DNA from: Armatimonadota bacterium
GTDB taxonomy: Bacteria; Armatimonadota; UBA10988
DNA length: 44,362 nucleotides
Reading direction: 5' to 3'
Assembly: GCA_016235455.1 (NCBI GenBank)
Contig: JACRKZ010000006.1
Span: 1 to 44,362, forward strand
Shown here: in pieces, positions 663 to 43,975 of the stretch
Layout of the letters: every line of letters starts with the position of its first letter
Numbering within the stretch: the first letter of the stretch is position 1
Translations under genes and position numbers: made by a program
Notes under the pieces: generated by a model
Database searches by the model: none
The model's input: the letters and a program-made list of their open reading frames with translations, nothing else
Told to the model about the DNA's origin: nothing

Positions 663-728
663 GGCCAATCCTCCCTCTGATCCCCTTGTGGAGACGGATT
701 GTCCCCGCGGCCCTACACCACGAGTCAA

Positions 729-758
729 AGATTACCTTGCCGCGCTGCGGCGTGTCAA
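729..758 (-). promoter_or_regulatory. Sigma70-type promoter TTGACA-N18-TAATCT for the left-edge gene
   Basis: Plus-strand TGTCAA (753-758) and AGATTA (729-734) read TTGACA and TAATCT on the minus strand, 18 nt apart, in a locally AT-rich patch. Confidence 0.6.
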
Positions 759-987
759 TTCAAAGATATTATGTTTCTTACGGCGGGTGAATATCGGCAC
801 GCTCTCCCGTGGCAGCGCTGGTCGGCACGGCCTGCCGCGGGTTCCGCGGCAGGACTCTCGGCGCACAGGGCGAACCGACCGCCAGGCGTTTGACGGCAGT
901 GGTAGGATCGGGGAACCCGGCGGGGCCGCTCGGCGCTACCGTGGCCAGCGCTCTGGCTTGTCTGGTGTAGGGAGGCGCGACGTTACG

Positions 988-2643: not shown

Positions 2644-2654
2644 CACAGGCCCCA

Positions 2655-2738
2655 CGGCATCCGCAGATAACGCAGATGGACGCAGATGGCCCTGGAGTCA
2701 GGCCTATCTGCGTCCATCTGCGTTATCTGCGGATGCCG
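2655..2738. repeat. Perfect 33-bp inverted repeat built from tandem CGCAGAT units (REP-like element or bidirectional terminator)
   Basis: CGGCATCCGCAGATAACGCAGATGGACGCAGAT (2655-2687) and its exact reverse complement (2706-2738), between convergent genes. Confidence 0.9.
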
Positions 2739-2750
2739 ACTCTGGCAGCC

Positions 2751-4609: not shown

Positions 4610-4724
4610 CTCCCATACTCCTGGGGCGACAGTGTACTCCCCGCACCGCTCCGTCGGGAAGTAGGGCCGAACATGAACCGGGAGTTACTCAACGGTCTGG
4701 CGGCGAGCTCGGCGCCAGACCACA

Positions 4725-17325: not shown

Positions 17326-19095
17326 ATGCGGCTCATGCCTGGTCAAGCCAACACTCCCACCCCCGACGACTCGCGACGCCGTGTCGACCAGCGCCTGTCG
17401 GCGCTACGCGGCCAGGTCCCCCCCAGCGGCGACCGCGGAGCGGAGCGGACGGCCGCCAGCCGCCTGCCGCGCCTGCTCTGGCCGTCGCTCGGCCTGGTGC
17501 TGCTGCTGCTCGGCGTCATCGCGGCCGTCGGCTGGCACGACCTCAAGGCTCCGCCCCCAGCCATCGCGCGCGGCCGGCTGGCCTCGGGCGTGCCGGTGCG
17601 CCTGGTCGCCGTGACGCGGGGCGCGCAGCAGACATACCGCTACGACCCCCGCGGCGGCCTGTGCGCGCGGCTGCTCAGTGCCCTGGGCGTGACTCGCGCC
17701 GACCGCGCCGTGGTCAACGATGCCCCTGTCCCGGCCGACTCCATCACGCTCTGGCTGTGGATCGGCGGTACCTACCTGGGTCCGCGCAACGGCGCCGCCT
17801 TTGGCGACGAGACCCGGCGCGAGTACCGCAACGGCCCGCTGGTGCAGCCGGTGCTGACCGGTCAGCAGGTGTGGCCGGGCTCGCGGCGACGCGGCTCCTG
17901 CAGCCTGGGCTGGGTCAGCCTGACCAGTTACGACCACACGGCGCGCAAGTTCGCCGCGGTCATCCCCGTGGGCCCGCCCGGCAGCGCCGAGCCGGGCGCG
18001 GGCGAAGTGGTCCACTTCACCGTCCAGGGGCCCGGCCAGGCGCCGACTCCCATCGAGGCCGGCAGCGAGTTCCCGGTGGTCGCGGGCGACGCCAGCGCCG
18101 ATCTCCAGCTATGGCAGCTGCGGCGGGTCACACTGCCCGTGCTGCGTTCGCTGCTGCCGCTGGGCCCGGTGCCCGAGCCGGCCGACCAGCTCGTGCTGGC
18201 CGACGTGGACGTGGTGGAGAAGGCGGCCAAGGACAAGCCGGGCCGCTGGTTCCTGCAGGTGCTCAGCGCCGCCACCGACCACGGCGAGAAGCTGCTGCCG
18301 GCCCGCCAGCGCAATGGTCTCGCGTTCCTTTCCAACGGTCGCCGCACCGAAGGGCTCGACGCCCTGGCCGTGCGGGCCCGCGCGGTCAAGGTGGCCTCGG
18401 GCGGCATGATGCTCAAGTTCCGCCAACTCGAAGTGCCGGCCGAGCGGGGCCAGACCAAGGAATGGAACGTCGCCGCGCAGGCCGAGCCGTTCCCCGGCGG
18501 ACGGTTCATCGTGCGCCGGGCCATGCGCGCCTCGGAGCGCGGGGTGCGCGTCGAGATCGAGGGCCACGGCCCCCGCGATAGTGAGTGCTCGCTGGCCTTC
18601 GTCGACGCGCTGGACCAGACCGCGCGCCACCTCAAGCTCAGCGGCGACACCAGCGCGGCGCCCGCCGAGGCCACCAATGATGCCCAGGGCTGCCATTGGC
18701 GGTGGATGCTCGATCTGACCGTGGCGCCCGACACCAAGTGGATGGGCCTGGCCTGCAACCTGGACTACCGCGCCACCATGGCCGACTCCCACGCCGAGCT
18801 CAAGGGCCGCATCGAACGCCCGCGCGCCGCCGCCGAACAGGCCGCCTGGGGTGTCATGGTCGAGCCGCGTGGCGAGCCGGTACCCAAGCTGATTGTCATC
18901 GGGCTGCAGCCGGGCAGCCGTGCCGCGTCTGGCCCTTTGCGGCCGGGCGACGAGTTGGTGCGCGTCGATAGCCTGCCGCCCTCCATGGTCAGCCGCGCGC
19001 TCATGCGCCATCAACCCTCGGACCAGATGGCGGTCACCTGGGTACGCGATGGCCAGACCTTCACCGCGCCCGTGGGCCTCGATGCCGCCAGGTAG
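17326..19095 (+). CDS. Single-TM membrane protein with C-terminal PDZ domain
   Basis: TM LLWPSLGLVLLLLGVIAAVGW; PDZ signature WGVMVE...VIGLQPGSRAASGPLRPGDELVRVD...VTWVRDG. Start codon uncertain (17317, 17326 or 17335). Confidence 0.75.
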   Translation: MRLMPGQANTPTPDDSRRRVDQRLSALRGQVPPSGDRGAERTAASRLPRLLWPSLGLVLLLLGVIAAVGWHDLKAPPPAIARGRLASGVPVRLVAVTRGAQQTYRYDPRGGLCARLLSALGVTRADRAVVNDAPVPADSITLWLWIGGTYLGPRNGAAFGDETRREYRNGPLVQPVLTGQQVWPGSRRRGSCSLGWVSLTSYDHTARKFAAVIPVGPPGSAEPGAGEVVHFTVQGPGQAPTPIEAGSEFPVVAGDASADLQLWQLRRVTLPVLRSLLPLGPVPEPADQLVLADVDVVEKAAKDKPGRWFLQVLSAATDHGEKLLPARQRNGLAFLSNGRRTEGLDALAVRARAVKVASGGMMLKFRQLEVPAERGQTKEWNVAAQAEPFPGGRFIVRRAMRASERGVRVEIEGHGPRDSECSLAFVDALDQTARHLKLSGDTSAAPAEATNDAQGCHWRWMLDLTVAPDTKWMGLACNLDYRATMADSHAELKGRIERPRAAAEQAAWGVMVEPRGEPVPKLIVIGLQPGSRAASGPLRPGDELVRVDSLPPSMVSRALMRHQPSDQMAVTWVRDGQTFTAPVGLDAAR

Positions 19096-19099
19096 GCTC

Positions 19100-19876
19100 A
19101 TGCTGGTCGATACGCACACCCACCTGCACTTCCCACACTTCGACGAAGACCGCGCCGAGGTCATCGCGCGCGCCGCCGCCGCCGGCGTAACGCGTCTCGT
19201 GGCCATCGGCACCGATCTGCCCGACTCCCGGGCGGCGGTGGCGCTGGCCGAAGCGTGGCCGGGCGTGGTCTGGGCCACCGTCGGCGTCCATCCCAACGCC
19301 GCGACCGACTTCGGCGCCGACTCTCTGGCCGAACTGCGCGATCTGGCCAGCCATCCCAGCGTGGTCGCCATCGGCGAGGTGGGGCTCGACCTGTTCCGCG
19401 ACCGGTGCCCGGTGGCCATGCAGCAGCAGGCCTTCGCCGCCCAGCAGCGGTTGGCGCTCGACCTGGGGCTGCCGCTGGTGGTCCACAGCCGCGAAGCGCA
19501 CGAGGCGGTCTACCAGTCGCTCGACGAGGTCGGCGGGTTCGTCACACGAGTCGTGGTGCACTGCTTCACCTCCCACGCACCGCAGATGATGCGCTTCGCC
19601 GAGCGCGGCTGCTGGGTGGGCCTCGATGGCCCGGTGACCTACCCCAAGGCCGTCGAGGCGCACGAGGTGGCCGACCTGGTGCCGCTCGATCGCCTGTTGC
19701 TGGAGACTGACTGCCCCTATCTGGCCCCCCAGAAGCGGCGCGGCAAGCGCTGTGAGCCGGCCGACGTGGTGGCCGTGGCGCACGAGGTGGCCCGCCGACG
19801 CGGCTTGACCCTCGACGAGGTGGCGGCGCGAACAACCGCCAACGCCATGGCGTTCTTCGGTTGGGAGACGTCATGA
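19100..19876 (+). CDS. tatD: TatD family metal-dependent hydrolase (DNase)
   Basis: DTHTHL, GVHP, AIGEVGLD, VHSREA, VHCFT, LLLETDCPYLAP. Confidence 0.93.
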   Translation: MLVDTHTHLHFPHFDEDRAEVIARAAAAGVTRLVAIGTDLPDSRAAVALAEAWPGVVWATVGVHPNAATDFGADSLAELRDLASHPSVVAIGEVGLDLFRDRCPVAMQQQAFAAQQRLALDLGLPLVVHSREAHEAVYQSLDEVGGFVTRVVVHCFTSHAPQMMRFAERGCWVGLDGPVTYPKAVEAHEVADLVPLDRLLLETDCPYLAPQKRRGKRCEPADVVAVAHEVARRRGLTLDEVAARTTANAMAFFGWETS

Positions 19877-21615
19877 AGCGCCTGGCTCCGCTGGTTCTGC
19901 TCCTGGCCGCCCTGCTGCCCGCCCGGGCCGACGACAACGAGGCCCTGCTGCGCCTGCGCGAAGGCTGGGCCGCGCTCGGCCGCGGTGCCGCCGCCGAGGC
20001 GCTGACCCGATGGGATCAGGCAGCCGCCACGGCCGCCTCGTCCAGCTACGTGTGTGAAGGGCTGGCGCGCTCGGGACAGGTCTTCGACGCGCAGTCGGCT
20101 GGCTGGCAGATCCGCCGCGACCGCCTGCTGGCCCGCTTCGCCGCCGCGCCGCCGCTGTGGCTGCACGACGACACGCGCGACCGCCTCCAGCGCGAATTGC
20201 GCGGGCGCGAGCCGGGCGCGTCGGTGCCGACGCTGGGCACCGTGCGCCTCGGCCCCAACGCCGCGCCGAGCGGGTTCCGCGGCTCACGCAGCCTGTGGTG
20301 GGCGCCGCTGACGCCCGGCGCGCCGGCCCTGGAGCCGCTCGGCGGCGAGGCCCTGCCGGCCCAGCGCGTGGCGCTCGAGACGGGTGGATGGGCCATCCTC
20401 GACCCACGCCACGCGGATCCATCGCTGTCAGCCGACCGGCGCGCCCGGTGGCGCTTCGACCGCGTGCTGGTGGGCTACACGCTGGAGCCCATCTTCACCG
20501 CCCGCGACGACTTCGGCCAGAACGTGGTCTATCCCACGGATCCCTGGTACGACGGGCAGGCCGCCATCTGGCGGCTGCGCTTCCGGCTCTACTATCCGTC
20601 AGCCGCGCTGACGCCCGGCGGCGTGGATCTGCGCGAGCCGGCCGAACGCGCGATGGACCTGCTGCTGCGCAGCCAGTGGCTGATGTGGGAGTACCTGGGC
20701 CGCCAGCCGCGCGATCCAGACGGTCGCCTGCAGCCGGTGGACATCTGGCTCTCGCCGGAAACGCTGGCCGCCGAGACTGCGGCCGTGGCCGAGGAGCTGC
20801 TGGGCAATATCTACCTGTACCGCGCCGCCGAGCCGCGCGAACCCACCGAGTGGTTCCGCCAGGTGGCCCATGAGCTGAGCCATCGCGCGCTCAGCCGCAT
20901 CGGCCGCTACCCCCAGAGCACGGCTTACGAGCCCTGGTTGGAGGGCAATGTCGGCGAACGGCTGCTGCTGCGCGCGTTGCACGAGCAGGCCGAGGAGCCG
21001 GCCGCCAACGCCGAATGGTGGCAGCGCTACCGCGCGGAGTCCTGGCAGCCGCTGGTGGACGAGTGGCTACGCGCGCCCTTGCCGGCGACACTGCCGCCGC
21101 AGGCGCTGGACACCGGCGATGCCGGCGCGCGCTGGGCGCTCGGTCTGATGTTGTGGGTGGCCGACACCCACGATGCCGCGTTCCTGCGCAACTGGATGCG
21201 CGGCATGGCACCCGGCAGCGCCTTCACCGGGGCCGAGCTAGAGCGCTCCTACCGCGTGCAGCTCGCCGAGCAGCGCTCCTGGCGCCAGAGCGCTGGTGCC
21301 GGCTGGGTGGCCGCGACGGATACGCGCCCCACGGTGACCGCCGATGGCCTGCGCCTGGAGGACGGTCAACGCGTCAAGTACCCCGTGTTCCTGCCCAAGG
21401 GCGACTGGGCCCTGCGCCTGGTGGGCGCCGGCGGCGGCCAGGTGACGACGGCCTTCAATGGCGCCAACCGCCAACTGCGGCCCGTGGGCACCGGCGACGA
21501 CTCTGCGCCGGCCCTGCTGCTGACCAGCCCAGGCACCTGGCTTAGCCTGGAGTTGGGCGGCTTCGGCGAGACGCAGCGCACGGTCCGGCAGATCGCCTGG
21601 CAACGGCGCCGTTGA
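19873..21615 (+). CDS. Secreted hypothetical protein with HExxH (possible gluzincin-like metallopeptidase)
   Basis: Signal peptide MKRLAPLVLLLAALLPARA; VAHELSH followed by PWLEG. ATGA overlap with the tatD stop. Confidence 0.7.
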   Translation: MKRLAPLVLLLAALLPARADDNEALLRLREGWAALGRGAAAEALTRWDQAAATAASSSYVCEGLARSGQVFDAQSAGWQIRRDRLLARFAAAPPLWLHDDTRDRLQRELRGREPGASVPTLGTVRLGPNAAPSGFRGSRSLWWAPLTPGAPALEPLGGEALPAQRVALETGGWAILDPRHADPSLSADRRARWRFDRVLVGYTLEPIFTARDDFGQNVVYPTDPWYDGQAAIWRLRFRLYYPSAALTPGGVDLREPAERAMDLLLRSQWLMWEYLGRQPRDPDGRLQPVDIWLSPETLAAETAAVAEELLGNIYLYRAAEPREPTEWFRQVAHELSHRALSRIGRYPQSTAYEPWLEGNVGERLLLRALHEQAEEPAANAEWWQRYRAESWQPLVDEWLRAPLPATLPPQALDTGDAGARWALGLMLWVADTHDAAFLRNWMRGMAPGSAFTGAELERSYRVQLAEQRSWRQSAGAGWVAATDTRPTVTADGLRLEDGQRVKYPVFLPKGDWALRLVGAGGGQVTTAFNGANRQLRPVGTGDDSAPALLLTSPGTWLSLELGGFGETQRTVRQIAWQRRR

Positions 21616-21651
21616 GCCGCGCGGCGGGCCACTCCCGGGTTGTTAACGGGT

Positions 21652-21681
21652 TTGACTCCCCATTGCGCGCTACACTATGAT
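21652..21681 (+). promoter_or_regulatory. Sigma70-type promoter TTGACT-N18-TATGAT upstream of the TPR/Hsp70 operon
   Basis: TTGACT 21652-21657 and TATGAT 21676-21681; AGGAG RBS before ATG 21740. Confidence 0.55.
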
Positions 21682-21739
21682 GGAATCTGTGCAGTGAGCA
21701 GGGGACCTGCGGTCATTCCGGGCCTGGGAAGTAGGAGTC

Positions 21740-22231
21740 ATGCGGCGCAACTGGCTCAATAGGGTGCTGGGTCGGGTCGACACCGAGCAGGTCCGCGCCG
21801 AGCTTCTTGCACTGGCTGCCGACGGCGATTGGGCCTCGTTACTGGCCGAATCGCTGGAAGCGTTGAAACCCTTGCCCACGGATGTCGTCATCCTCAACTG
21901 CGCGGTACGCGCGCGTCTCGCGTTGGCCGACGAGACAACCTTGGCCGAAGCGCTCGCCGAGTGCCGCGAATGGCTCGAAGCCGGCCAGGTCAGCGCCGAG
22001 GTGCCGGTGCCGCCGGAGCAGCAGGTTGAAGCCGAGTACCTGCGGGGCTGGGTGGCCACGCTCGACGGCCGCTGGGAGCAGGCGGAGCAGTGCTGGCGGA
22101 CGGTCTGGCAGGCGCAGCCTGAACGAGCCGACGCGCGCGACGGTCTGGTCAAGGCATGGACGGTCCTGGGCCGTGTGCCCGAATGGGGAGTAGCGCTGGT
22201 TGAAGCCACCCTCGCTGACAGCCGGGGATAG
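21740..22231 (+). CDS. TPR-like protein (163 aa), probably the N-terminal part of the giant TPR protein, separated by a frameshift
   Basis: TPR-like AEYLRGWVATLDGRWEQAEQCWRTVWQAQPERADARDGL; good RBS; overlaps the next ORF by 32 nt in another frame. Confidence 0.7.
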   Translation: MRRNWLNRVLGRVDTEQVRAELLALAADGDWASLLAESLEALKPLPTDVVILNCAVRARLALADETTLAEALAECREWLEAGQVSAEVPVPPEQQVEAEYLRGWVATLDGRWEQAEQCWRTVWQAQPERADARDGLVKAWTVLGRVPEWGVALVEATLADSRG

Positions 22232-25200
22232 AGAGCAGGCCTGGTCGCTGCTGCTGACCGCGTGGCATGACGCCGGCGCGGGCAATCGTCATGCGCGCCT
22301 GTCGGAGAAGGGCTTTCTGCTCTGCCAGCGGCGTTTTGGCACCGGCGATCGCGATCCCCGTCTGCTGGCCGTGCTCGGCCGCGAGGCGCTGGCCGCCAAG
22401 CGCTGGGACCGCGAGGCGCGCGAGGTGCTGGTCCTGCTCGGTGCCCTCGACCTGCCCGAGAGCGAAGCCGCCCGCCGGGCCGCCGTGCGCTGCGACGCGG
22501 CCTTGCGCGAGTATTCGCCCGCCCGCGAGACCTGGTACCGGCAGGCCCTGGCCGCCGGCTCGGTCTCCGCGGCCACGCTGCTGACCGTGGCCGCGCTACG
22601 CGGCCGCATGGAGCCCGAGGCGGCCACGGCCCTGGCCGTGCGCCGCGCCACCACCGAGCTGACCGACGCCCAGTGGCAGGCCATCGGACTGGACAAGACC
22701 GCCGCGCGACGCTGGCTGGCCCTGTGGTACAGCCGGCCCGAAGCCACGGACGTCCCCGCCGACGCCGTCTCGCTGGTCCGCGAGCAGGTGCGGCTGGACC
22801 CGACCAACACGCAGATGCTCGCCTATCTGGCCAGGGTCTTCCGGCCGCGGGCCGACGCCGCGGCGGTGGAAGTCTACGAGGCGCTGTTCCGCGTGGCGCC
22901 CGACAACGCCGACAACACATCACATCTGGCCGAGTCCCTGACCGCCGGCACCGTCACCCTGCGCGATCCCGTGCCGGTGCTCGAGCAGTGGCTGCGCAAC
23001 AGCCCCGAGAACGCCGACCGCGCCAAGATCGCCCTGGCCACCAACGCCGCGGCCACCGGGCGCGACGATGACCAGGCGCTGGCCTGGCTGGAGGCGGCCC
23101 TGGCCTTGCCGGCGGCGCCGGCCAACCTGCGCGCCTGGCTGGCCGTGCTGCGCGCCCGCCGCGGCCGGCGCGACGAGGCGAGCCTGGCGCTGTATGAATC
23201 CGTGCTGGCCGACGAGACGCCGCCAGCCGCGTGGCGGGGCGAGGTCGGCCTGGCGCTGCTGGCCAGCGACCGCGAGCGCGGAGAATTCCGCGCCGCCATC
23301 GCCGAGCGCACCTGGCATTGCCTGCCGGCCGACCGCCGTCCGGACGAGTTGGCGCTGAAGCTGGCGGAGGGCTACGTCGCCGAGGGCCGGTGCGACGCCG
23401 CGGTGGCCAGCATCTACCGGCGGGCGCACGACCTCAACCCCTATCCTGATCTGAGCCGGCTGCTGTCGCGCGCCTACCTGGTGGATGAGTCCACGCCGGT
23501 GCGCACCAAGATCGCCCACTGGCGCGCCTGTTTGGAGCTGCGCCGCGCCGAGCCCGAGATCGTGGAGGCGCTGGCCAAGGCCTACGCCTCGCTGGGCTCG
23601 GCCACCGAGGCCGCCATCTACGTGGCCGAGAGCGCGCCACCGGCCCAACGCGTCAAGCTGCTCGACGATCTGTGCCGCTACCGGTTCCGGCGCGGCGACT
23701 TCTCGGCGGCCGAGGCGCTGGCTTCGGCCATGCTGCGGCTGGTGCCCGACGACGACAGCGCCACGCGCGCCGAGGCCGGCGCCAAACTGCTGGCCTGCAA
23801 GGTGCGGCGCCGCCTGGCCGACGGGCGCAGTCTGGGCCTGATCGACACCACGCAGGTGGCCGAACTGGCCGACCACAACAAAGTCGGCGATCTGTTGGCC
23901 TTGCTGGCCGCGGCCCATGACGGCAGTGGCAGCGATGCCGAGGTGGCCGCGGCCATCGCCCGGCAGGTCGGCGAGCAGCCGGCGCTGGCGGTCGCCGCAC
24001 AGGTGCTCTCGGGTCAGCCGAGTCAGCCGGAGGCCGTGGACACCAGCCGCGCGGGCGAGGTCTGGCTACTCGCGCTCGCGGCCCACTGCGATGGTCAGCT
24101 CGAGGTCGCCGAGCGCTTGCTCGGCCGGCTGCCCGAAGCGCTGGCCCTGGCCGGTCGTGCCCTGTTCGGCGCCTTGCCCGGCGAGAGCGAAGAGCAGGCC
24201 ATCGAGCGCCTGCTGCCGGTCATCCATCGCCATGGCCCGCCGTGGGATAGCCTGCGCGCGGTGGCCCTCGACCTGCTGATCCGCTTCGCGCCGGCCGATC
24301 TGCTCGACCAGGTCTCCAACCTGCTCGACGACATGCCCGCGCTGGCCGCCGAGTTGCGCGTGATCGCCGAACTGGCCGAGCAGGACCCCCATCTGGCCAC
24401 CCAGCGCGTGGCTCAAGCGGAGACCGCCACCGACCCCGACGCTGTCTACTTGCTGCGCGACGGTCTGTGGGCCCGGCACATCTACAGGCTCATCGACGCC
24501 GACGACTATGCCGCCGCCGAGCGCGAACTGACCGAGTTCGGCAAGCTGGCCGCCGACCCCGACCGGCAGGACCAGCAGGCCAGGCTGGCGGACGCAGGCA
24601 ACTGGCTGCGCGCCCTGCTGGCGCGCCGGCGCGGCCAGACCGATCTGGCCTGGGACCGGCTGGCTCGGCTGTCGCCCGAGGCGCGCGCCGTGCCGGCCGT
24701 AGCCTGGACCGCGGCGAGCTGGCACCTGGCCGACGATGAGCCGGCCCGCGCCGAAGCCGAACTGGGCTACGCCCTGGCCGAGCGCCGCAACGATGCCGAC
24801 CTGCTGTATGCCGTGCTCAGCTTGAACGCGTCGCTGGGCCGCACCGAGAAATTCAGCCTGCTGGTCGACCCGGTGCTGGCGGCGCTGCCGGCGGACGACC
24901 CGCGCCGACCCGATGTCGACCTGCTGCGGCGCTTGATGGTGCCAGACCAGGCCGAGGTCGACCTGGACGACCTGTTCGTCGACTGCGCCCGGCTCAGCGC
25001 GCGCGATGTGCGCGTGCGGCTACTGGCGGCCATGGTCGTCGCCGCCGCGCAGATCCGCGCGCGGCGGCCGGCCGAGGCCGCCGCGCTGCTCAAGAAGCGG
25101 CTGGCCGCGCTCAACGGGGTCAAGCTGCCCACGGAACTGGCGGAGACACTGGCCGAGGTGCGCAACCTGCGCGGCTATGCCTACCTGCTGGCCGGCGACG

Positions 25201-26285
25201 CCGCCGAGGCCGAACGGCAGTTGGCGCGCCTGCCTCAGGACGACCTGGCCGCGGGCCACAACCGGGCCCGCGTGGCCGTGGAGGCCGGCGACACCGAGCG
25301 CGCCGCGGAGCTGTGGGAGCGACTGACGCCGCTGTTCGAGCAGTTGCCGTTCGACGAGGTGGCCAAAGGCTATCGCGAGGCGGCCCGGTTCGCCTGGCAT
25401 CTGAACCTGGCCGAGCTCTACCTGCAGCGCGAGGCGTGGCGCCCGGGACTGGACCACCTGGAGGTCTGCCTCAAGGTCCGGCCCTACGACATGGCCGTGC
25501 AGCGCCGCTGCATCCCGGCGCTCATCGCGCTGGGCGAGGGCGAGGTGGCGCTGTACAAGTCCGACTGGCTCATCGGCCAGCGGCCCCACGATCTGGAACT
25601 GCTCATCGAGCACGGCATGGTGCTGGCCAGCGTGCGCGGTAGCCGGGCCGGGCTCGACTATTTCGACGATCTTTCCAGGCGCCGACCCGACGCGGTCGAT
25701 GTCGTGCGTCAGAAGAAGATCGAGATGCGTGACCGCATCCTTGAAAGCTGCGCCCAGCGCGCCAAGAGCCGCGACTTCGTGGGGCTGTTCACGCTGGCCC
25801 GCGAGGTGGAGGTGCTGGTCGAGAATGACGAGGAGCGGGCCAAGGCCATCTTGCAGCAGGCCTTCGCCCTGAGCAACATGGGTGAGCAGGACCCGTCCAG
25901 CCGAGGCGCCGTGCTCGAGCAGGCGTTCGGCCGGATCGAGGAAGCGCTGGCACTTTCGCCCAGCGAACGCGTCAAGAGTCAACTGGTGGCACTGCGCGGC
26001 GCCATCGCCCCGGCGCTGGCGCCGGAGCTGGCCCGCAATGCGGGCGAGTTGCTGCGGCATCGGCGGCGGGAGTACATGACCATCACCGAGAACCTGGGCG
26101 CGCCGTCACCCGGCGCGCGCGGGCAGGTGCAGGGCCTGGCCGAGGCGTTCGAGCGCATCGTGGCCATGGCCGACCGCGCGGTGGAGCTCGGCGGCGCCGC
26201 GCAGGGCGCCGCGACAGCGGAGCTGCGGGCCGAGGCGAGCAAGCTGGCACGCGAGTGTCGGCGGCTGGAGGCGACCTGGCAATGA
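22200..26285 (+). CDS. Giant all-helical TPR/alpha-solenoid protein (1361 aa; about 1514 aa if fused with the upstream ORF)
   Basis: Repeated TPR-like units (VRLDPTNTQMLAYLA, FRVAPDNADNTSHLA, AGHNRARVAVEAGDTERAAELW, HLNLAELYLQREAW...LEVCLKVRPYD); no enzymatic motif recognised. Confidence 0.85.
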   Translation: MKPPSLTAGDREQAWSLLLTAWHDAGAGNRHARLSEKGFLLCQRRFGTGDRDPRLLAVLGREALAAKRWDREAREVLVLLGALDLPESEAARRAAVRCDAALREYSPARETWYRQALAAGSVSAATLLTVAALRGRMEPEAATALAVRRATTELTDAQWQAIGLDKTAARRWLALWYSRPEATDVPADAVSLVREQVRLDPTNTQMLAYLARVFRPRADAAAVEVYEALFRVAPDNADNTSHLAESLTAGTVTLRDPVPVLEQWLRNSPENADRAKIALATNAAATGRDDDQALAWLEAALALPAAPANLRAWLAVLRARRGRRDEASLALYESVLADETPPAAWRGEVGLALLASDRERGEFRAAIAERTWHCLPADRRPDELALKLAEGYVAEGRCDAAVASIYRRAHDLNPYPDLSRLLSRAYLVDESTPVRTKIAHWRACLELRRAEPEIVEALAKAYASLGSATEAAIYVAESAPPAQRVKLLDDLCRYRFRRGDFSAAEALASAMLRLVPDDDSATRAEAGAKLLACKVRRRLADGRSLGLIDTTQVAELADHNKVGDLLALLAAAHDGSGSDAEVAAAIARQVGEQPALAVAAQVLSGQPSQPEAVDTSRAGEVWLLALAAHCDGQLEVAERLLGRLPEALALAGRALFGALPGESEEQAIERLLPVIHRHGPPWDSLRAVALDLLIRFAPADLLDQVSNLLDDMPALAAELRVIAELAEQDPHLATQRVAQAETATDPDAVYLLRDGLWARHIYRLIDADDYAAAERELTEFGKLAADPDRQDQQARLADAGNWLRALLARRRGQTDLAWDRLARLSPEARAVPAVAWTAASWHLADDEPARAEAELGYALAERRNDADLLYAVLSLNASLGRTEKFSLLVDPVLAALPADDPRRPDVDLLRRLMVPDQAEVDLDDLFVDCARLSARDVRVRLLAAMVVAAAQIRARRPAEAAALLKKRLAALNGVKLPTELAETLAEVRNLRGYAYLLAGDAAEAERQLARLPQDDLAAGHNRARVAVEAGDTERAAELWERLTPLFEQLPFDEVAKGYREAARFAWHLNLAELYLQREAWRPGLDHLEVCLKVRPYDMAVQRRCIPALIALGEGEVALYKSDWLIGQRPHDLELLIEHGMVLASVRGSRAGLDYFDDLSRRRPDAVDVVRQKKIEMRDRILESCAQRAKSRDFVGLFTLAREVEVLVENDEERAKAILQQAFALSNMGEQDPSSRGAVLEQAFGRIEEALALSPSERVKSQLVALRGAIAPALAPELARNAGELLRHRRREYMTITENLGAPSPGARGQVQGLAEAFERIVAMADRAVELGGAAQGAATAELRAEASKLARECRRLEATWQ

Positions 26286-26315
26286 GCATTCGTGCAGCCA
26301 AGAAGGAGTGCGCCG

Positions 26316-26765
26316 ATGCGTGACGAAGGGTTCACCCTGGCTCACGGCGTGCTCAACGTGGCGCGCGCCGCCGACCTCGATGAGGTGGAAGGCACGTTCG
26401 CCCGGTTGTACAAGGCGGCGCGCCGACTGCCCAGCGGCGGCGACCATCGGCGCCAGGAGTTGAACGCCGCGCTGGAGGTGATGAGCGACCCGGACAAGCG
26501 CGCGGCGACCGAGGTGGAAGCCTACTGGGTGCCCTTGGCGGCCGACCGCGAGGTGCCCTCGGCAGAGGCGCTGGCGGCGGATCTGCTGCCGCTGCGCCTG
26601 GCGCTGCCGGCCAGCGCCGCGGAACATGTGCTGTTGCCGCCGCCGCAGGCTGTGGTAGATGAGGTTTTGAGCCGCGTCGAGGCACCCGAGGTGCCCGACG
26701 AACGGACCATACTTAGGCAATTGGCAGCCCGAGCCGCCTGGGAGCACCTGGACCCCTGGGCTTGA
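26316..26765 (+). CDS. J-domain-like protein lacking the HPD motif (149 aa)
   Basis: HGVLNVARAADLDEVEGTFARLYKAARRLPSGGDHRRQELNAALEVMSDPDKRAATE aligns by eye to the J-domain consensus, with RRL at the HPD position. AAGGAG RBS; adjacent to grpE-like and Hsp70 genes. Confidence 0.7.
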   Translation: MRDEGFTLAHGVLNVARAADLDEVEGTFARLYKAARRLPSGGDHRRQELNAALEVMSDPDKRAATEVEAYWVPLAADREVPSAEALAADLLPLRLALPASAAEHVLLPPPQAVVDEVLSRVEAPEVPDERTILRQLAARAAWEHLDPWA

Positions 26766-26784
26766 GAGGAGCCAGACCGCGGAG

Positions 26785-27363
26785 ATGAGTATCGCCGACC
26801 TGGCCGCCGCCCTGATCGGGCTGCGGGAGAGTACCAATCGCGACCACCAGCGCGTCACCGGCAGCGTGGACGAGTTGCGCGCGACCGTGACCTCGCTGCG
26901 CGAGGAGACCGACGAGCGCGTCGACCGCCGCCTGGCGGCCTCGGCGCAGTCGCTGCGCGATCTGGACCGGCGACTCGAGAACGATTACGAGCGGCGCTAC
27001 GACGCGGTGCTGACCGCGCTTCTGGAGGTGACCGAGCGCCTCACCCAACTGGCCGAGGGCGCCGATGGCAGCGCCGACCCGGCCGAACTCTCGGCGCGAC
27101 TGGCCTCGCTCAGCGCGCCGCGGGATCGCTTGCGCCGCATCGTCGAGGATGCGGGTATCCGGCAGTTCACCTGCGAGGGTGAGCCCTATGACCCCCTACG
27201 GCACGAGGTCGTTCAGCGCGAGTTCGTGCCCGACTGCACCCACGAGTACGTGAAGACCGAGCTTCGGCCCGGCTACGTGCGCGAGGGACTGGACCATACC
27301 CTTGTGCGGGCCAAGGTGATCGTGGCCGCGCCACCCATCATGGAGGGCAGCGCCGATGGCTAA
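26785..27363 (+). CDS. grpE: GrpE-like nucleotide exchange factor
   Basis: Long N-terminal coiled coil and GrpE beta-domain signature GEPYDPLRHEVV...VKTELRPGY...LVRAKVIV. Overlaps the Hsp70 start. A paralog rather than the housekeeping copy. Confidence 0.85.
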   Translation: MSIADLAAALIGLRESTNRDHQRVTGSVDELRATVTSLREETDERVDRRLAASAQSLRDLDRRLENDYERRYDAVLTALLEVTERLTQLAEGADGSADPAELSARLASLSAPRDRLRRIVEDAGIRQFTCEGEPYDPLRHEVVQREFVPDCTHEYVKTELRPGYVREGLDHTLVRAKVIVAAPPIMEGSADG

Positions 27364-29215
27364 TTACGTCGGCATCGACTTTGGCACCACCAACAGCGTC
27401 GTCGCGCGGCTCGTCGAGGAGCCGACTCGCGTCGACATTCAGGTGGTGAACAACAACCTGGGCTCCGATCGCACGCCTTCGGCCGTGGCGGTCTCGGCGC
27501 AGCAGACCGAGTGGCTTTTTGGCCAGGCCGCCAAGGAGGCCAACACACCCCACAAGGTGCTCTCGGTCAAGCGCATCCTGGGCACGGATCAGCAGGTCGA
27601 GCTGGGTGGTCGCTCCTTCCGCACGGAAGCCGTGGCCAGCCTGCTCATGCGCTATCTGATCACCCAGGCCCAGAAACGCGTGGGCGAACCCATCGACTCG
27701 GCGGTCATCACGGTGCCGGCCAACTCCAAGGGTCTGCAGCGCAACGCCACCAAGTTGGCCGCCACCACCGCCGGTGTGCGCGTGCTCAACCTGATCAACG
27801 AGCCCACCGCCGCGGCCATGGCCTACGGGTTGGGCAAGTCATCGGCGGGGCGCAGCCTGCGCGTGCTGGTCTACGACTTCGGCGGCGGCACGTTCGACGT
27901 GACTCTGCTGCGCGCGCACCATGGCATCTTCGAGGAGGTCGCCAGCCGCGGCCTGCGCCGCTGCGGCGGTGACGACCTCGACGCGGCCCTGGCCGACCAG
28001 TTGCGTGCCGGCGTGCTGGCCGAACATGCTGAGGCCCTGCACCAGGCTTACCCCGACCTGCGCTTGCGCCTGGCCTGCGAGCAGGCCAAAATCGCGCTCA
28101 GCGATGCCGACGACGCACGCATCGACGTGGAGGAACTGCTCCCCGGCGTGAACGTGCATGAAGGCATCGACCGCGCCTCGTTCATCGACCTCATCCGGCC
28201 GATCATCGAGCGCACGGCCGAGCCGGTGAAGGAAGTGCTCGACGGCGCCGGCCTGGCCGCGTCGGATCTCGACCATGTGCTGCTCGTCGGTGGTACCAGC
28301 CGCGTGCCGTTCGTGCGCGAGTTCGTGGAGAACCTGCTGGGTTGCGCGGCGGAGCCGTTCGACCAGATCGACCCGATGACCTGCGTGGCCCAGGGCGCCG
28401 CCATCGTCTCGGGCATCCTGCAGGGCGCGCCGCACATGGAAGACTACGACTACCAGGTCTGTCTGGAGCACTCGCTCTGCACCGACCCGGTGGACGTCAT
28501 GACCGGGCGCAAGTACCTCGAGCCGCTCATCGAGCACGGCACGAAGATCCCCAACCAGAACACCAGCGTCTACCTGCCGGTGGTCGACTTCGCCAAGGAA
28601 GTCGTGGTCAACATCTATGAGGGCAACGTCTACGACGACCCGCTAGATGAGGAGAACGTCCGCATCGGCGAGGTCCGCGTCAAGCTCGACCCGCCGCGGC
28701 CCGCCGAGCAATGCCCGGTGCAGGTGCAGTTCGAGTACTCCGAGGACGGCATCATCACCGCGCGCGGCAAAGACCTGACCCAGAACCGCACCTTCGCTCG
28801 CGTCATCGACTTCTCCACCGGCCACCTCAAGGAAGAAGAGGTCCGCACCGTTCGCGCGCTGCTGACCAAGGTCTTCGGCGAGGAGCCGCCGCTGGTGCTG
28901 CCGACCGCCGCCGAAGCCGAGGCCGCTGCCGAAGCGGCGGGCGCCGCCGAGGCACCGAGCGCCGTGCCGACCGCGACGGCCACGCTGGCTGGACCCGCCG
29001 CCGACGCGCCGGCCGAGGTCCGCGATGCCTATGCCCGCCTGGCCAGCGCCGACAAGGTGCTGCGCGAGCTGGGCAACAGCGCCGAAGCCGGTCAGTTGCG
29101 CGCGCTGCGCAACCGCCTGGCGGCCGCGTTGGAGGGCATCACGCCGCTGGCCGAGGTGGTGGAACTGGACAAGCAGTTGGCCGCGGAGCTGATGTTCTTC
29201 GACTACCTGCTCTAG
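27356..29215 (+). CDS. Specialised Hsp70/DnaK-family protein (619 aa)
   Basis: GIDFGTTNS, SVKRILG, VITVPA, INEPTAAAMAYG, VYDFGGGTFDV, GGDDLD, LLVGGTSRVP, DPMTCVAQGAA; beta-SBD recognisable; divergent linker and lid. Confidence 0.93.
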   Translation: MANYVGIDFGTTNSVVARLVEEPTRVDIQVVNNNLGSDRTPSAVAVSAQQTEWLFGQAAKEANTPHKVLSVKRILGTDQQVELGGRSFRTEAVASLLMRYLITQAQKRVGEPIDSAVITVPANSKGLQRNATKLAATTAGVRVLNLINEPTAAAMAYGLGKSSAGRSLRVLVYDFGGGTFDVTLLRAHHGIFEEVASRGLRRCGGDDLDAALADQLRAGVLAEHAEALHQAYPDLRLRLACEQAKIALSDADDARIDVEELLPGVNVHEGIDRASFIDLIRPIIERTAEPVKEVLDGAGLAASDLDHVLLVGGTSRVPFVREFVENLLGCAAEPFDQIDPMTCVAQGAAIVSGILQGAPHMEDYDYQVCLEHSLCTDPVDVMTGRKYLEPLIEHGTKIPNQNTSVYLPVVDFAKEVVVNIYEGNVYDDPLDEENVRIGEVRVKLDPPRPAEQCPVQVQFEYSEDGIITARGKDLTQNRTFARVIDFSTGHLKEEEVRTVRALLTKVFGEEPPLVLPTAAEAEAAAEAAGAAEAPSAVPTATATLAGPAADAPAEVRDAYARLASADKVLRELGNSAEAGQLRALRNRLAAALEGITPLAEVVELDKQLAAELMFFDYLL

Positions 29216-29224
29216 GCGCGTGCC

Positions 29225-29902
29225 ATGGCCGACTGGCGTGACCAACTGGCGGAATTGGAGGCGGCGCTGGGCGACGTGGGGCAGTTGACCTGCCCGGTCT
29301 GTCGCCTGGCGCAGCCGGCCGAGTCCGCCACTTGCGAACGCTGCGGCGCCGACCTGGCGCTGCTGGCCGGCGTGCTGGCCGAGGCCGCGCGCAGCAAGAT
29401 CGAGCTCTACCAGGCCATCGCCCGCGGTGATGCCGTGGCCGCGTTGGGTGAACTCGATGCCACGGCCCAGCTCACCGGGCCCAGCCTGGAACTGGCGGTG
29501 CTGCGGCGGCTGCTGCGGCACGGCACAGTGCCGCTGGAAGTGCTTGGCGACCTGGCGCCGACGCCCGATGACGATGCGGAGCCGATGGCCGTCTATGCGG
29601 TCGCACCGGCCCCCGGCGACGAACTCCTGCCCGACCTCGACGCCGACCCGGAGCGAGCCGCCTTCGCCGGGCTGTGGCCTGCGGCCGAAGCCGATCTGGA
29701 GCCGATGCCCGACATCGAGCCTGAGGGACACAACCACCACCCCGCACCTGAGCCGGCCACGCCGCCGCCGCCGACACCGCCGCCGCCAGTGGTTGTGCCG
29801 TCCGCGCCCGTTCTGCCTGGCGCCGTGGTGTGGATCATGGTCGGCGTGGCCACCATCACACTGATCCTGGGGATTGGCATCGGCTGGATGTTGGGTTCGT
29901 GA
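29225..29902 (+). CDS. Zn-ribbon protein with acidic/Pro-rich linker and C-terminal TM anchor
   Basis: CPVC-x10-CERCGADL, a helical segment, poly-Pro run, then terminal TM AVVWIMVGVATITLILGIGIGWMLG. Confidence 0.8.
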   Translation: MADWRDQLAELEAALGDVGQLTCPVCRLAQPAESATCERCGADLALLAGVLAEAARSKIELYQAIARGDAVAALGELDATAQLTGPSLELAVLRRLLRHGTVPLEVLGDLAPTPDDDAEPMAVYAVAPAPGDELLPDLDADPERAAFAGLWPAAEADLEPMPDIEPEGHNHHPAPEPATPPPPTPPPPVVVPSAPVLPGAVVWIMVGVATITLILGIGIGWMLGS

Positions 29903-29929
29903 GGCGGCCGGCCGAGGTGACCGGTGGCG

Positions 29930-29962
29930 CCCCCCCTGTAGTCCCCCCGCGTGCGGGGGGAC
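29930..29962. repeat. Short C/G-run palindrome (REP-like hairpin)
   Basis: CCCCCCCTGTA followed by GTCCCCCCGC-GT-GCGGGGGGAC (perfect 10-bp inverted repeat), between the chaperone operon and nadD. Confidence 0.65.
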
Positions 29963-29999
29963 GCGTGTCGGGCCGAGCCGTCACCGCAGGTGCAGTGCC

Positions 30000-30602
30000 A
30001 TGACAACCCCTCGTCTCGGGCTCTTCGGCGGCACCTTCGACCCACCCCATCGCGGCCACCTGGCCTTGGCCGAGCACTGCCTGCGCGCGCTGTCGCTGGA
30101 CGCCGTGTGGTGGATTCCGTGCGGCCAGCCGGCGCTCAAGCAGCATGCGGCGGCCAGCGCCGAGCAACGCCGCGCCATGGTCGAGCTGGCCATCGCCGGT
30201 CGGCCGGAGTTCGCGCTGTGCGACGTAGAGCTGCGGCGCCAGGGGACCAGCTACACGGTCGACACGCTGGCCGAGATCGCTGACCAGCACGACCGCTTGC
30301 ACCTCTGGTGGCTCATGGGCCTCGACGCCCTGGTCGACTTCCCGCGATGGCGCGAGCCGCGGCGAATAGTTTCACTCGTGCGCCTCGCGGTCGTCGATCG
30401 GCCGGGCGACGAGTCCGACCAGGTGCGCTCCAGCCTGCCCCAGTGGCTGGCTGATCGCGTGGATTGGGTGCCTATGCCGCTGGTGGACGCCGCCTCGCGC
30501 ACCATCCGGGCCGAGTCGGCCCAAGGCCCCACGAGTCGCTTGGGCCTGCCGGACTCGGTGGCCGAGTACATCGCGAAACATCGCCTCTATACGGCTGCCT
30601 AA
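30000..30602 (+). CDS. nadD: Nicotinate-nucleotide adenylyltransferase
   Basis: GLFGGTFDPPHRGHL (HxGH), SYTVDTL, LMGLDA...FPRW, ASRTIR, VAEYIAKHRLY. Confidence 0.95.
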   Translation: MTTPRLGLFGGTFDPPHRGHLALAEHCLRALSLDAVWWIPCGQPALKQHAAASAEQRRAMVELAIAGRPEFALCDVELRRQGTSYTVDTLAEIADQHDRLHLWWLMGLDALVDFPRWREPRRIVSLVRLAVVDRPGDESDQVRSSLPQWLADRVDWVPMPLVDAASRTIRAESAQGPTSRLGLPDSVAEYIAKHRLYTAA

Positions 30603-40236: not shown

Positions 40237-40746
40237 TTGAACCCGCCGACCTCTGGTCTCACCGCCCAACTGCTGCCGTACCTGGGCGAGATCGCCTTGG
40301 TGCTGGCCCTGCTCACGCTGACCGCCCTGGTGCTGGCCTGGCGCAATGCCCGCGCGCTGGCCCAAGCCCGCGCTCGCTACCAGGCGCTGGTCGCCGGCGT
40401 GGCCGAGGGCGACTTGGAGCGCCTGCTCAACCAGCACCTCGAGCGCATCGAAACCGCGCGCCGCGAGGTGACCGCGCTCGACCGAGCCCTGGCCAACGTG
40501 GCCCGTCAGGCCGATAGCTGCTTGCAGCGCGTGGGTCTGGTACGCTACAACGCCTTCGGCGACGTCAGCGGCGAGGTCAGCTTCGCGCTGGCCCTGCTCA
40601 ACCTGCACGGCGATGGCGTGCTGCTCAACAGCATGTTCGCCCGTCAGGGCAGCAGTGTCTACGCCAAGCAGATCCGCGCCGGCCGCGCCGAAGTGCCGCT
40701 GTCGGACGAGGAGAGCGAGGCGCTGGCGGCCGCGCTGCGGCGGTGA
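40237..40746 (+). CDS. DUF4446 family membrane-anchored protein
   Basis: N-terminal TM, coiled coil, RVGLVRYNAFGDVSGEVSFALALL...GVLLNS...YAKQI...LSDEE. Start (TTG 40237) uncertain. Confidence 0.8.
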   Translation: MNPPTSGLTAQLLPYLGEIALVLALLTLTALVLAWRNARALAQARARYQALVAGVAEGDLERLLNQHLERIETARREVTALDRALANVARQADSCLQRVGLVRYNAFGDVSGEVSFALALLNLHGDGVLLNSMFARQGSSVYAKQIRAGRAEVPLSDEESEALAAALRR

Positions 40747-40834
40747 CGGCGGCGGCGGCGCGCGCGGCACGGCAGCGCGGCAAGGCAACGCTCGGATGCG
40801 TCGGCCGGGCTATTCCGCTGGGGGAGCGTGCAGC

Positions 40835-43800: not shown

Positions 43801-43975
43801 CGTCCGCGAACGCAAATCGCTGCCCAGCGGACAGGCCTCGCCGTATGCCTTTCTAGGCGCTGCTGACTACGTTTCGCATACGGGCGACCGGCCAATGAGC
43901 ATCATCTGGCACCTGCAGACGCCCATGCCTGCCAGGCTGCTCCGCAGCACGTGCCATCAGATGGCCAGTGCGTAG
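40835..43975 (+). CDS. PLD-nuclease + SF2 helicase + DUF3427 protein (SauUSI-like type IV restriction enzyme candidate), 1046 aa
   Basis: SFIKWSG, LHAKAY...VGSANLS (PLD/HxK), ATGTGKT, VDEFHH, LTATPER, DLYNEGVDIP, QQLGRGLR, C-terminal YSPTTMYEDYAIS...FHWQSQS. Confidence 0.88.
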   Translation: MSNADQRPGRLVPGLYEELITAALLQELSGLPDPPLYEAAGVDMEAAHSAMAQHLAQLLGSALTRIRGPEASAQRLRLADRVIASLAAELGPDAQVGAALAEPLRQLLSVGRQPSLTAGDRPDTPLSRSALLTGTRLDPSLASQLSKEIASSDRVDILCSFIKWSGLRLLLDALKQLTSSGLPDGPRLRVISTSYMGATDPKAIEWLSRLPNTQVRVSYDTSRTRLHAKAYLCHRETGFGSTYVGSANLSRAALSEGLEWTSKISQYELPHLWRKIEGTFETYWNDEEFEEFTEASGTRLREAILRERESGGDTAGLALFDLRPYPYQQEILDAIATEREVQGKRQHLVVAATGTGKTMVAAFDYRRAVAGGRPSLLYVAHREEILSQAIGTFRAVLRDHNFGDLLFGGRDPEQTKHLFCSIQSYNSRELWRLDPEQYQYIVVDEFHHAAAPSYSRLLEHVRPAILLGLTATPERCDGLDVLGWFGGEASAEIRLPDAIGRRLLCPFQYFGVSDCVDLDSVRWQRGGYRAEDLDGLYTGNDVRAGLVVDKVIDVLNDPAQARAIGFCVSVAHAEYMARFFNERGLPAVALSAQSPSEERRSARERLVRREVNFVFVVDLYNEGVDIPEIDTVLFLRPTESLTVFLQQLGRGLRMHADKECLTVLDFIGAHRREFRFAARFRALSNSPTAKLDREIEDGFPHLPSGCAIRLERVAQQRVLSNVRSTLALRRSRVLSELRDLARYLGRPPAIREALEHLDTTLDALLRNGAWSRLLSDAGLGPAPEAPDEDQLASGLRRLAHIDDPQQLRFLLHHLSRQEAARGEDAIEHTRLAMMHVTLWGSMGSSMTVEEAEQRLRENASFVSDIRALLEYRLAHTHTRPLTLVPVAGPLAVHALYSRDEILVGLGRWSMDKRPDFREGVLHLKDAKVDALFVTLLKAKTDYSPTTMYEDYAISDRLFHWQSQSTTASSSETGQRYIKHKSLGYTPLLFVRERKSLPSGQASPYAFLGAADYVSHTGDRPMSIIWHLQTPMPARLLRSTCHQMASA

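Follow-up and report, generated by a model that had tools for sequence, protein, structure and literature searches.

We describe a conserved gene module that is a real and so far undescribed variant of the specialized-Hsp70 theme. It lies in a stretch of 44,362 nucleotides (nt), hereafter the window, from an Armatimonadota bacterium of the UBA10988 lineage (assembly GCA_016235455.1, contig JACRKZ010000006.1, positions 1 to 44,362, forward strand). The window is contig C21 of a 6.5-Mb genome that comprises 185 contigs and is 93% complete. Six co-oriented genes (21740-29902, + strand) behind one promoter-like site encode two overlapping proteins of the tetratricopeptide repeat (TPR) type, a J-like protein, a GrpE-type nucleotide exchange factor, an Hsp70 paralog, and a zinc (Zn)-ribbon membrane protein. 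It is rather likely that this locus specifies a dedicated, self-contained Hsp70 machine that acts at the membrane, on or with TPR scaffolds, beside the housekeeping DnaK/DnaJ/GrpE set and insulated from it. The main interest of the module is its apparently re-invented J-Hsp70 interface, together with the membrane and TPR partners.

The Hsp70 paralog (619 amino acids (aa); 27356..29215, +) consists of a nucleotide-binding domain (NBD), the beta part of the substrate-binding domain (SBD-beta), and a short lid. It matches PF00012 with 313.9 bits at a cut-off of 20.6, over profile positions 100-551 of 599, and its best relatives in the PDB are DnaK chains (E 9.4e-78). The DnaK equivalogs are not reached (NF001413, 301.4 vs 648; TIGR02350, 296.5 vs 822.55), nor is the HscA equivalog (TIGR01991, 253.9 vs 708.55), and no isc genes are present in the window. 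Identity to the genome's own DnaK is about 36%. A quick maximum-likelihood tree was built from 43 of 47 prepared rows; L077, L029, a second, 755-aa Hsp70-like protein of the window, and OWN_C170 were left out. The module protein falls into a clade of 25 rows (SH-like approximate likelihood ratio test, SH-aLRT, 98) that excludes DnaK, HscA, and HscC of Escherichia coli, the genome's own DnaK, and the DnaKs of other Armatimonadota. The first-pass annotation of this DNA had called the Hsp70 atypical, and the clade sets it apart from DnaK, HscA, and HscC in phylogeny as well. Within the clade the tree follows family groupings in Fimbriimonadaceae and Gemmatales, and the gene is single-copy.

In DnaK, R167 pairs with the aspartate of the HPD motif of J proteins, and both R167 and the YF(N/D)D motif have a role in J binding. 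The module Hsp70 keeps the equivalents of the catalytic residues K70, E171, D194, and T199 as well as an intact SBD. At the J-binding positions, all 12 clade rows examined have N or T instead of R167 and NSKG instead of YFND (N and NSKG in the window protein), whereas all four DnaK/HscA/HscC rows keep the arginine and YF(N/D/S)D. The interdomain linker VLLLDVTPLSLG is changed to Y-x-V-x-LEHSLC in the clade rows, while DnaK, HscA, and HscC keep the canonical residues. The same picture is seen among the 120 best database homologs, where the R167 position is occupied by T in 108 and by N in 11 (119 of 120). The C-terminus is YLL in 104 of these homologs, and the window protein ends with ...MFFDYLL. 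Judging by the aligned residues, the canonical J-interface features are replaced throughout the clade. In the Fimbriimonadaceae Hsp70s, SBD-beta and the C-terminal helices are also separated by an Ala/Pro-rich insertion (window 28900-29080, residues ~515-575), which is absent from the ~578-aa forms of Gemmatales.

The J-like gene (26292..26765, +) encodes 157 aa if read from GTG 26292; the probable start is ATG 26316, because the N-termini of the orthologs fit it. The protein misses the gathering threshold of PF00226 (18.4 vs 27.8 bits). The profile of its family matches solved J domains with E-values from 1.5e-5 to 1e-3 (4j7z, 1.5e-5; E. coli DnaJ, 8.8e-5), and in the profile alignment Y-H-P-D of DnaJ stands opposite Y-K-(gap)-A. 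In the AlphaFold model (predicted local distance difference test, pLDDT, 84.4), the first ~75 residues superpose on J domains with a root-mean-square deviation (rmsd) of 1.2-1.7 Å over 63-64 columns. Nearly all listed Foldseek matches of the model are J domains, for instance 3ucs_C (rmsd 1.2 Å over 63 columns), with E-values of about 0.01 and none at or below 0.001. According to profile and model, the window protein is a J fold (helices II and III) that lacks HPD, as proposed in the first-pass annotation. It has K-A-A-R at the HPD position, and HPD is absent from all 23 aligned family members. The best 150 of 514 representatives of the family (110 at E <=1e-10, 32 at E <=1e-30) were considered separately: x-A-R-K/R takes the place of HPD in 104 of the 110 that have residues at the motif, and the six HPD-bearing ones are the weakest matches (E >=7.6e-10) and look like ordinary J proteins. 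The C-terminal half of the protein is helical and ends with LDPW; P155 is invariant in the family, and D154 and W156 are nearly so. The family comprises at least 1141 clusters at 90% identity, and the 120 relatives listed have no Pfam family. At residue level, both sides of the canonical HPD-R167 contact, the J-fold partner and the Hsp70, are replaced.

The gene between them (26785..27363, +) encodes a divergent GrpE-type nucleotide exchange factor of 192 aa and overlaps the Hsp70 gene by 8 nt. The earlier assignment to GrpE stands: the protein passes PF01025 (48 vs 25.8 bits), and its family profile matches the GrpE structure 4ani (E 2.5e-13), while its scores stay below the cut-offs of the NCBIfam GrpE equivalogs (best 40.1 vs 240). 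The predicted private nucleotide cycle is complete, as it includes an Hsp70 with intact ATPase residues and its own GrpE.

The Zn-ribbon protein (225 aa; 29225..29902, +) is composed of a Zn ribbon, a helical part with a short TPR-like stretch, a Pro-rich part, and a C-terminal membrane helix. Its earlier description as a Zn-ribbon protein with such a helix is confirmed by the CPxC...CxxC pattern and by a predicted hydrophobic helix at ~193-225, which in the window copy is the extreme C-terminus. The pattern C23-P-x-C26...C37-x-x-C40-x-x-D43-x-x-L46-L47 is invariant in all 15 relatives; sub-threshold matches to double-zinc-ribbon and TPR models are found in 11 and 9 of them, respectively. The gene adjoins the Hsp70 gene in all eight contiguous Gemmatales loci, and the pair is kept in four of the six Gemmatales genomes where the module is split. 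No other gene of the module is linked as tightly to Hsp70.

Large TPR scaffold proteins are encoded upstream of this core in all three lineages that contain it. In the window, the first-pass annotation had predicted one TPR protein of 1400-1500 aa. A TPR-type giant is indeed present, but it is divided into two open reading frames (ORFs) that overlap in different frames. The first, N163 (21740..22231, +), encodes a helical TPR-like protein of 163 aa, starts with ATG preceded by GGAG, and stops in frame 2 at TAG 22229-22231. The second (22200..26285, +; 1361 aa) uses TTG 22200 as its start codon, lies in the +1 frame relative to N163, and overlaps it by 32 nt. The same two-frame layout is observed in the complete related locus L024 (junction at 2760-2785). 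Two gene calls, P0122 (52% identity) and P0123 (40%), likewise begin at the K-P/A-P-S-L-T position where the 1361-aa ORF begins. A sequencing or assembly error at the junction was considered and rejected, since three further gene sets or loci show this layout and the junction is spanned without gaps by a 9981-nt contig from one study and a 460-nt contig from another. Separate initiation at the TTG is favored over a +1 frameshift, because this codon is conserved and has GGGGAG 9 nt upstream; no slippery site common to the window and L024 was seen at the junction. The likeliest history, as read from these layouts, is a gene fission that produced overlapping, translationally coupled ORFs, since the two-frame layout recurs in relatives while both parts are joined in a single 1135-aa frame in G004, a Fimbriimonadaceae genome at greater distance (L120, reverse strand, 1754-5161). 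A +1 frameshift product across the junction is a less likely alternative.

The TPR nature of the two window proteins follows from the fold and from the relatives, not from Pfam, whose TPR models have no match in 21740-22231 or 22200-26285. The AlphaFold model of the 1361-aa protein (residues 162-1361, mean pLDDT 82.1) contains 63 helices and no strands. Its best Foldseek matches are TPR scaffolds (an IFT-A subunit, Ski3, Ctr9, and the TPR part of OGT) with E-values from 2.5e-12 to 1e-5 and a low global TM of ~0.2, and its atlas features are TPR-like at 0.96. As modeled, the protein is a TPR-type superhelical solenoid. It has no hydrophobic segment, and only two relatives besides itself were found (52% and 40% identity). 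The N163 ortholog in L024 (36% identity) passes TPR_14 (29.5 vs 23.5 bits), and Pfam TPR models are passed by the positional counterparts in the Gemmatales loci L032, L033, and L144 and by the upstream proteins of locus L027. The ~900-aa upstream TPR proteins of Gemmatales start with a hydrophobic stretch.

The first-pass annotation had proposed to look for co-occurring homologs of the module genes. They do co-occur in other genomes, namely in Fimbriimonadaceae, in Gemmatales, and in one Bacillota-labeled metagenome-assembled genome (MAG). Ortholog-level Hsp70s (58-85% identity) are present in all six Fimbriimonadaceae genomes, whereas in the other 25 Armatimonadota genomes searched the Hsp70 matches are at DnaK level (~35-38%) or missing. 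Strong J-like matches (E <=1.7e-22) have the same distribution: six of six Fimbriimonadaceae and none of 295 other Armatimonadota sampled. A further 46 weaker matches in Armatimonadota cover the J-domain part only, mostly in frames of ~370-470 aa, and look like ordinary DnaJ. The full order N163-TPR-J-GrpE-Hsp70-Zn ribbon-nadD is observed in L024, and the short contigs L022, L023, and L025 agree with it as far as they reach. In G004, a TPR-J-GrpE group is located 24 kb away from the Hsp70 gene.

An even sample of Planctomycetota contained too few Gemmatales to be informative and gave one positive genome in 351, the center genome itself; an order-level sample of 201 Gemmatales genomes took its place. 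Of these 201 genomes, 53 encode the J-like protein and 57 the Zn-ribbon protein, the latter with E <=1e-20 in 51. Both are present in 47 genomes, the J-like protein alone in 6, a strong Zn-ribbon match alone in 4, and neither in 144. A shared contig, with the two genes within ~4 kb of each other, was seen in only 18 of these 47 double-positive genomes; thus, the proteins co-occur even when their genes are unlinked. Such co-occurrence is stronger evidence for a functional unit than synteny alone, although the genomes are related and the counts are not independent. In 8 of 12 Gemmatales loci around the J-like gene the order J-GrpE-Hsp70-Zn ribbon is contiguous, and GrpE directly follows the J-like gene in 14 of 16 short loci. 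The third lineage is represented by L027, a contig of 50% G+C from the Bacillota-labeled MAG, with the order TPR-J-GrpE-Hsp70-Zn ribbon; this genome is the only one of 22 in its class to have the module. One more locus, L026, carries the label Alcaligenaceae; as its Hsp70 falls within the Gemmatales-type clade of the tree, the contig may be mis-binned. A profile-driven locus search with the alignment of the Hsp70 clade, which drew on generic Hsp70 motifs, mostly recovered canonical DnaKs (80 loci in total), the useful ones being L031-L034.

In three of the eight contiguous Gemmatales loci, a second Hsp70-like gene is located upstream of two TPR genes (L144, 2720-5323; L141, 14717-17305, - strand; L140, 15553-17534, - strand); hence, in this lineage the module has two Hsp70-family proteins. 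The product is ~860-870 aa in L144 and L141, both ending with ...LLEGSA (~5300-5323 in L144), and is split over two ORFs in L140. The GrpE-like proteins of Fimbriimonadaceae end with ...MEGSADG or similar (window 27343-27363). A short tail motif common to the two proteins is possible and may be a coincidence.

The genome also encodes a canonical chaperone set. A DnaK scoring 689 bits is located on contig C158 with a DnaJ gene ~1.2 kb downstream; there are two further DnaJs, and a second, better-scoring GrpE (91.9 bits) lies on another contig. Thus, the refuting case named in the first-pass annotation, a module Hsp70 that is the only DnaK of the genome, does not apply. The view of the locus as a self-contained, specialized Hsp70 module is likewise upheld by this canonical set, by the separate Hsp70 clade, and by the co-occurrence of the parts. 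In total the genome has nine PF00012 matches in at least six loci (C158, C21, C170, C133, C35, C138), an unusually large Hsp70 complement.

A natural model for the dedicated machine can be outlined as follows. The altered J-Hsp70 interface (K-A-A-R on one side, R167 to T/N on the other) would insulate the pair from DnaK and DnaJ, and the J-like protein would recruit or regulate the Hsp70 and not act as a classical HPD trigger. GrpE would reset the nucleotide cycle. The Zn-ribbon protein would position the chaperone on the cytoplasmic side of the membrane, where the TPR solenoids may be a platform, dedicated clients, or both. The sensor, switch, and tether roles suggested in the first-pass annotation are likewise hypothetical. 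EEVD tails are known to dock on eukaryotic TPR co-chaperones; by analogy, the ...YLL end of the Hsp70 and the ...LDPW end of the J-like protein might dock on TPR grooves. The probable output would be ATP-driven assembly, remodeling, or release of a TPR-scaffolded, membrane-associated complex.

Several observations weigh against a dedicated machine of this kind. In a protein that lacks HPD, contact with the Hsp70 is uncertain, and all 120 listed relatives of the J-like protein are unnamed or called "hypothetical protein". The TPR partners diverge fast (40-52% identity where the Hsp70 keeps 73-79%) and vary between lineages in number and size; they could be clients, adaptors, or merely neighbors. 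No single contig unites the parts in G004 or in 29 of the 47 double-positive Gemmatales genomes, and therefore operon integrity is not required. In three of the 12 Gemmatales loci the J-like gene is split over two frames (L145, 9644-10221; L146, 9752-10332; L147, 9654-10587), with no Hsp70 within 10 kb; in genomes with such a dispersed module, the J-like gene may be frameshifted or in decay. The deeper forks of the Hsp70 tree are unsupported, so that the relation of the clade to HscC is left as an open fork. As for expression, a close relative is represented by contigs (90-95% alike) from two metatranscriptome libraries of two studies. These contigs extend over most of its operon and span three junctions (TPR/J, J/GrpE/Hsp70, and Hsp70/Zn ribbon), leaving the stretch ~24950-26060 uncovered; they are a weak hint of expression, as such contigs cannot prove transcription.

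Known specialized Hsp70 systems resemble the module in part. In the HscC locus of E. coli (MG1655 annotation), a non-DnaK Hsp70 is encoded beside its own J-type proteins, DjlB and DjlC, and the Sel1-repeat proteins YbeQ and YbeT. DjlB and DjlC are membrane-anchored. Unlike the module Hsp70, HscC keeps R at the R167 position and YFSD, and it is placed outside the 25-row clade; its partners are annotated as J-domain proteins, and the locus has neither a GrpE nor a Zn-ribbon protein. The HscA/HscB pair of the isc operon is similar in that a specialized Hsp70 has a single J-type partner of its own and serves a defined client system. However, HscA keeps R167 and YFDD, the isc operon has no GrpE, and no Fe-S genes are found near the module in the window. 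The mitochondrial PAM motor consists of mtHsp70, Tim44, Pam18, the HPD-less J-like Pam16, and the GrpE homolog Mge1. On paper it shares with the module an Hsp70 held at the membrane, a J-like subunit that lacks HPD, and an exchange factor of the GrpE type, and it may be seen as the nearest functional analogy for this combination. The homology is limited to the Hsp70, J, and GrpE folds, and the module has neither an HPD-bearing J partner nor a translocon.

Another partial parallel is provided by SglK (MxDnaK2) of Myxococcus xanthus, a second Hsp70 that serves a specialized process and has a private, non-heat-induced GrpE (GrpS, MXAN_6672) encoded directly upstream, according to the matched passages of PMC11019930 and PMC8265645. 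Thus, the statement of the first-pass annotation that specialized Hsp70 operons have no GrpE of their own was too general, at least on the account of PMC11019930. The passages of PMC8265645 describe SglK as a DnaK of the PRK00290 type that complements an E. coli dnaK mutant, whereas the module Hsp70 scores far below that model (301 vs 648). Unlike in the module, no J-domain-protein gene stands beside either DnaK gene in M. xanthus (PMC11019930, matched passages), and Zn-ribbon or TPR partners are not mentioned in the passages of these two papers. The M. xanthus stk locus was also considered as a relative and rejected, as the partners of StkA are SCP2-like and PhaE-like proteins. Kaur, Burroughs, Iyer, and Aravind (2020; PMC7159879, matched passages) described HSP70 and GrpE with DnaJ- and TPR-module proteins outside the heat-shock operon. 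Their systems, found mainly in Actinobacteria and Firmicutes, are defined by a GAP1-N2 GTPase and an FNIII-repeat protein. No Pfam match to a GTPase or FNIII domain was obtained among the window ORFs from 376 to 43975 or the module proteins of L144, L032, and L033, with no dedicated GAP1-N2 model in the search. An unlabeled overlap of the module with the architectures of that study is possible, as far as its passages tell. Literature searches in abstracts and matched passages, supplements aside, found no published description of this architecture, which agrees with the earlier suggestion that no characterized system has the same composition.

Three other explanations of the module were weighed. 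One regards it as a biological-conflict system, anti-phage or similar, in which an invader would be detected by the TPR solenoid, with the Hsp70 cycle setting the threshold of the response. The conflict systems of Kaur et al. (2020; PMC7159879, matched passages), with HSP70 and GrpE neighborhoods and DnaJ- or TPR-fused proteins around GAP1-N2 GTPases, are a precedent. The spread of the module is patchy (6/6 Fimbriimonadaceae, 0/295 other Armatimonadota, 53/201 Gemmatales, 1/351 Planctomycetota, 1/22 in the Bacillota-labeled class), and the TPR proteins of Gemmatales and L027 give matches to TPR-S, the sensor TPR, that stay below threshold (27.1, 20.5, and 18.2 vs 27.6 bits). A type IV restriction enzyme gene 10.7 kb downstream of the module points the same way, but eight unrelated metabolic genes part the two. 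Moreover, PADLOC-DB 2.0 contains no convincing match to the module (best E 0.0015-0.0033 in the window; 4.8e-5 at 20.3 bits for one TPR protein of L144), and effector domains (GTPase, nuclease, protease, TIR, or other) are absent from it and from the genes beside it. The flanks are housekeeping genes: tatD and nadD in the window, nadD again in L022 and L024, and a thrC-like gene for a pyridoxal phosphate enzyme and dapB in L144. The single-copy Hsp70 gene, with a tree that tracks family groupings in Fimbriimonadaceae and Gemmatales, does not suit a conflict system either. We regard this role as improbable, possible but unsupported; the anti-phage option raised in the first-pass annotation loses ground with the lack of a convincing PADLOC match, the housekeeping flanks, and the missing effector domain. 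About equally improbable is a redundant or stress-condition back-up chaperone set for general clients, with the TPR and Zn-ribbon genes as unrelated passengers. Several DnaK paralogs of unclear role are often found in large-genome bacteria (PMC13580251, PMC8265645, matched passages), and the nine Hsp70-family matches of this genome, together with the intact ATPase residues and SBD, would fit such a set. It does not account for the clade-wide replacement of the canonical J-binding features, for a linked J protein without HPD as the only one, or for the Zn-ribbon and J-like genes that track the Hsp70 across phyla and at unlinked positions; a CIRCE element is also lacking in the window.

The remaining explanation, which we consider unlikely, is a membrane-tethered Hsp70 motor that pulls or handles polypeptides in the manner of the mitochondrial import motor, with the TPR proteins as receptors. 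The parallel in composition (Hsp70, HPD-less J-like protein, GrpE, and membrane protein), the adjacency of the Hsp70 and Zn-ribbon genes as the tightest link, and the hydrophobic start of the ~900-aa TPR proteins in Gemmatales all speak for it. Nevertheless, the neighborhood of the module has no conserved gene for a translocon, secretin, or transporter, no HPD-bearing J partner equivalent to Pam18 is encoded in the module, and the likeness is one of composition only. A bolder extension of the dedicated machine itself is similarly doubtful: a bacterial Hsp70 uncoating/assembly or pulling motor, in which a non-HPD J-like protein would act as the trigger through the re-invented interface and drive cyclic assembly and stripping of the giant TPR scaffolds at the inner face of the membrane. 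If true, Gemmataceae and Fimbriimonadaceae would possess a prokaryotic equivalent of Hsc70/auxilin or the PAM motor, and the J-like family would be the first J-type co-chaperone family that works without HPD.

Coming back to the dedicated, insulated machine, how bacterial Hsp70 paralogs stay apart from DnaK and DnaJ is described as an open question (PMC13580251, matched passages). The module offers a natural orthogonal pair, with both sides of the contact replaced family-wide, and adds to it a membrane protein and an exchange factor of its own. With four small proteins, it can be tested directly whether a J fold that lacks HPD is able to drive or gate an Hsp70 cycle. The module also defines at least two unannotated families, the J-like family and the Zn-ribbon membrane protein, and provides an entry point for studying what giant TPR proteins do in Gemmataceae and Armatimonadota.

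The genomic setting of the module in the window (G+C content ~70%) corresponds closely to its earlier description. The candidate promoter is a single sigma-70-like site, TTGACT-18 nt-TATGAT (21652..21681, +), with 10 of 12 consensus matches and 59 nt before the first ATG. It is a putative site identified by consensus match only; within 21400-30300 one such site was found, compared with 0.2 +/- 0.4 expected in shuffled sequences. The close packing of the co-oriented genes, with gaps of 30, 19, -8, and 9 nt, is obtained again when ATG 26316 is taken as the start of the J-like gene. The absence of hrcA and CIRCE also holds, as no CIRCE consensus was found in the whole window at up to three mismatches and no HrcA family member among the window ORFs scanned. 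The module is located between tatD (18893-19876) and nadD (29874/30000-30602), as stated before, with a 584-aa ORF to which no function was assigned (19861-21615) between tatD and the module.

Two other regions of the window deserve mention. At 40613-43975 (+), the restriction gene encodes a 1120-aa protein with PLD, ResIII helicase, and DUF3427 domains that matches the PADLOC type IV methyl-directed restriction model with 804.9 bits. At the opposite end, 376-2643 (+) encodes the 755-aa Hsp70-like protein, unrelated to the module Hsp70, which contains an NBD only (residues 310-637; PF00012, 127.6 bits) and has a weak PADLOC match to PDC-M61B (29.9 bits). It was considered as a counterpart of the ~860-aa Hsp70-like protein upstream of the Gemmatales modules and rejected at 25% identity over the NBD. 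Downstream of it are two ORFs with no family assigned (2676-3824 and 3773-5014), followed by a 1433-aa PAS/PocR hybrid histidine kinase (4725-9026). This gene group (376-9026) may be another specialized Hsp70 module.

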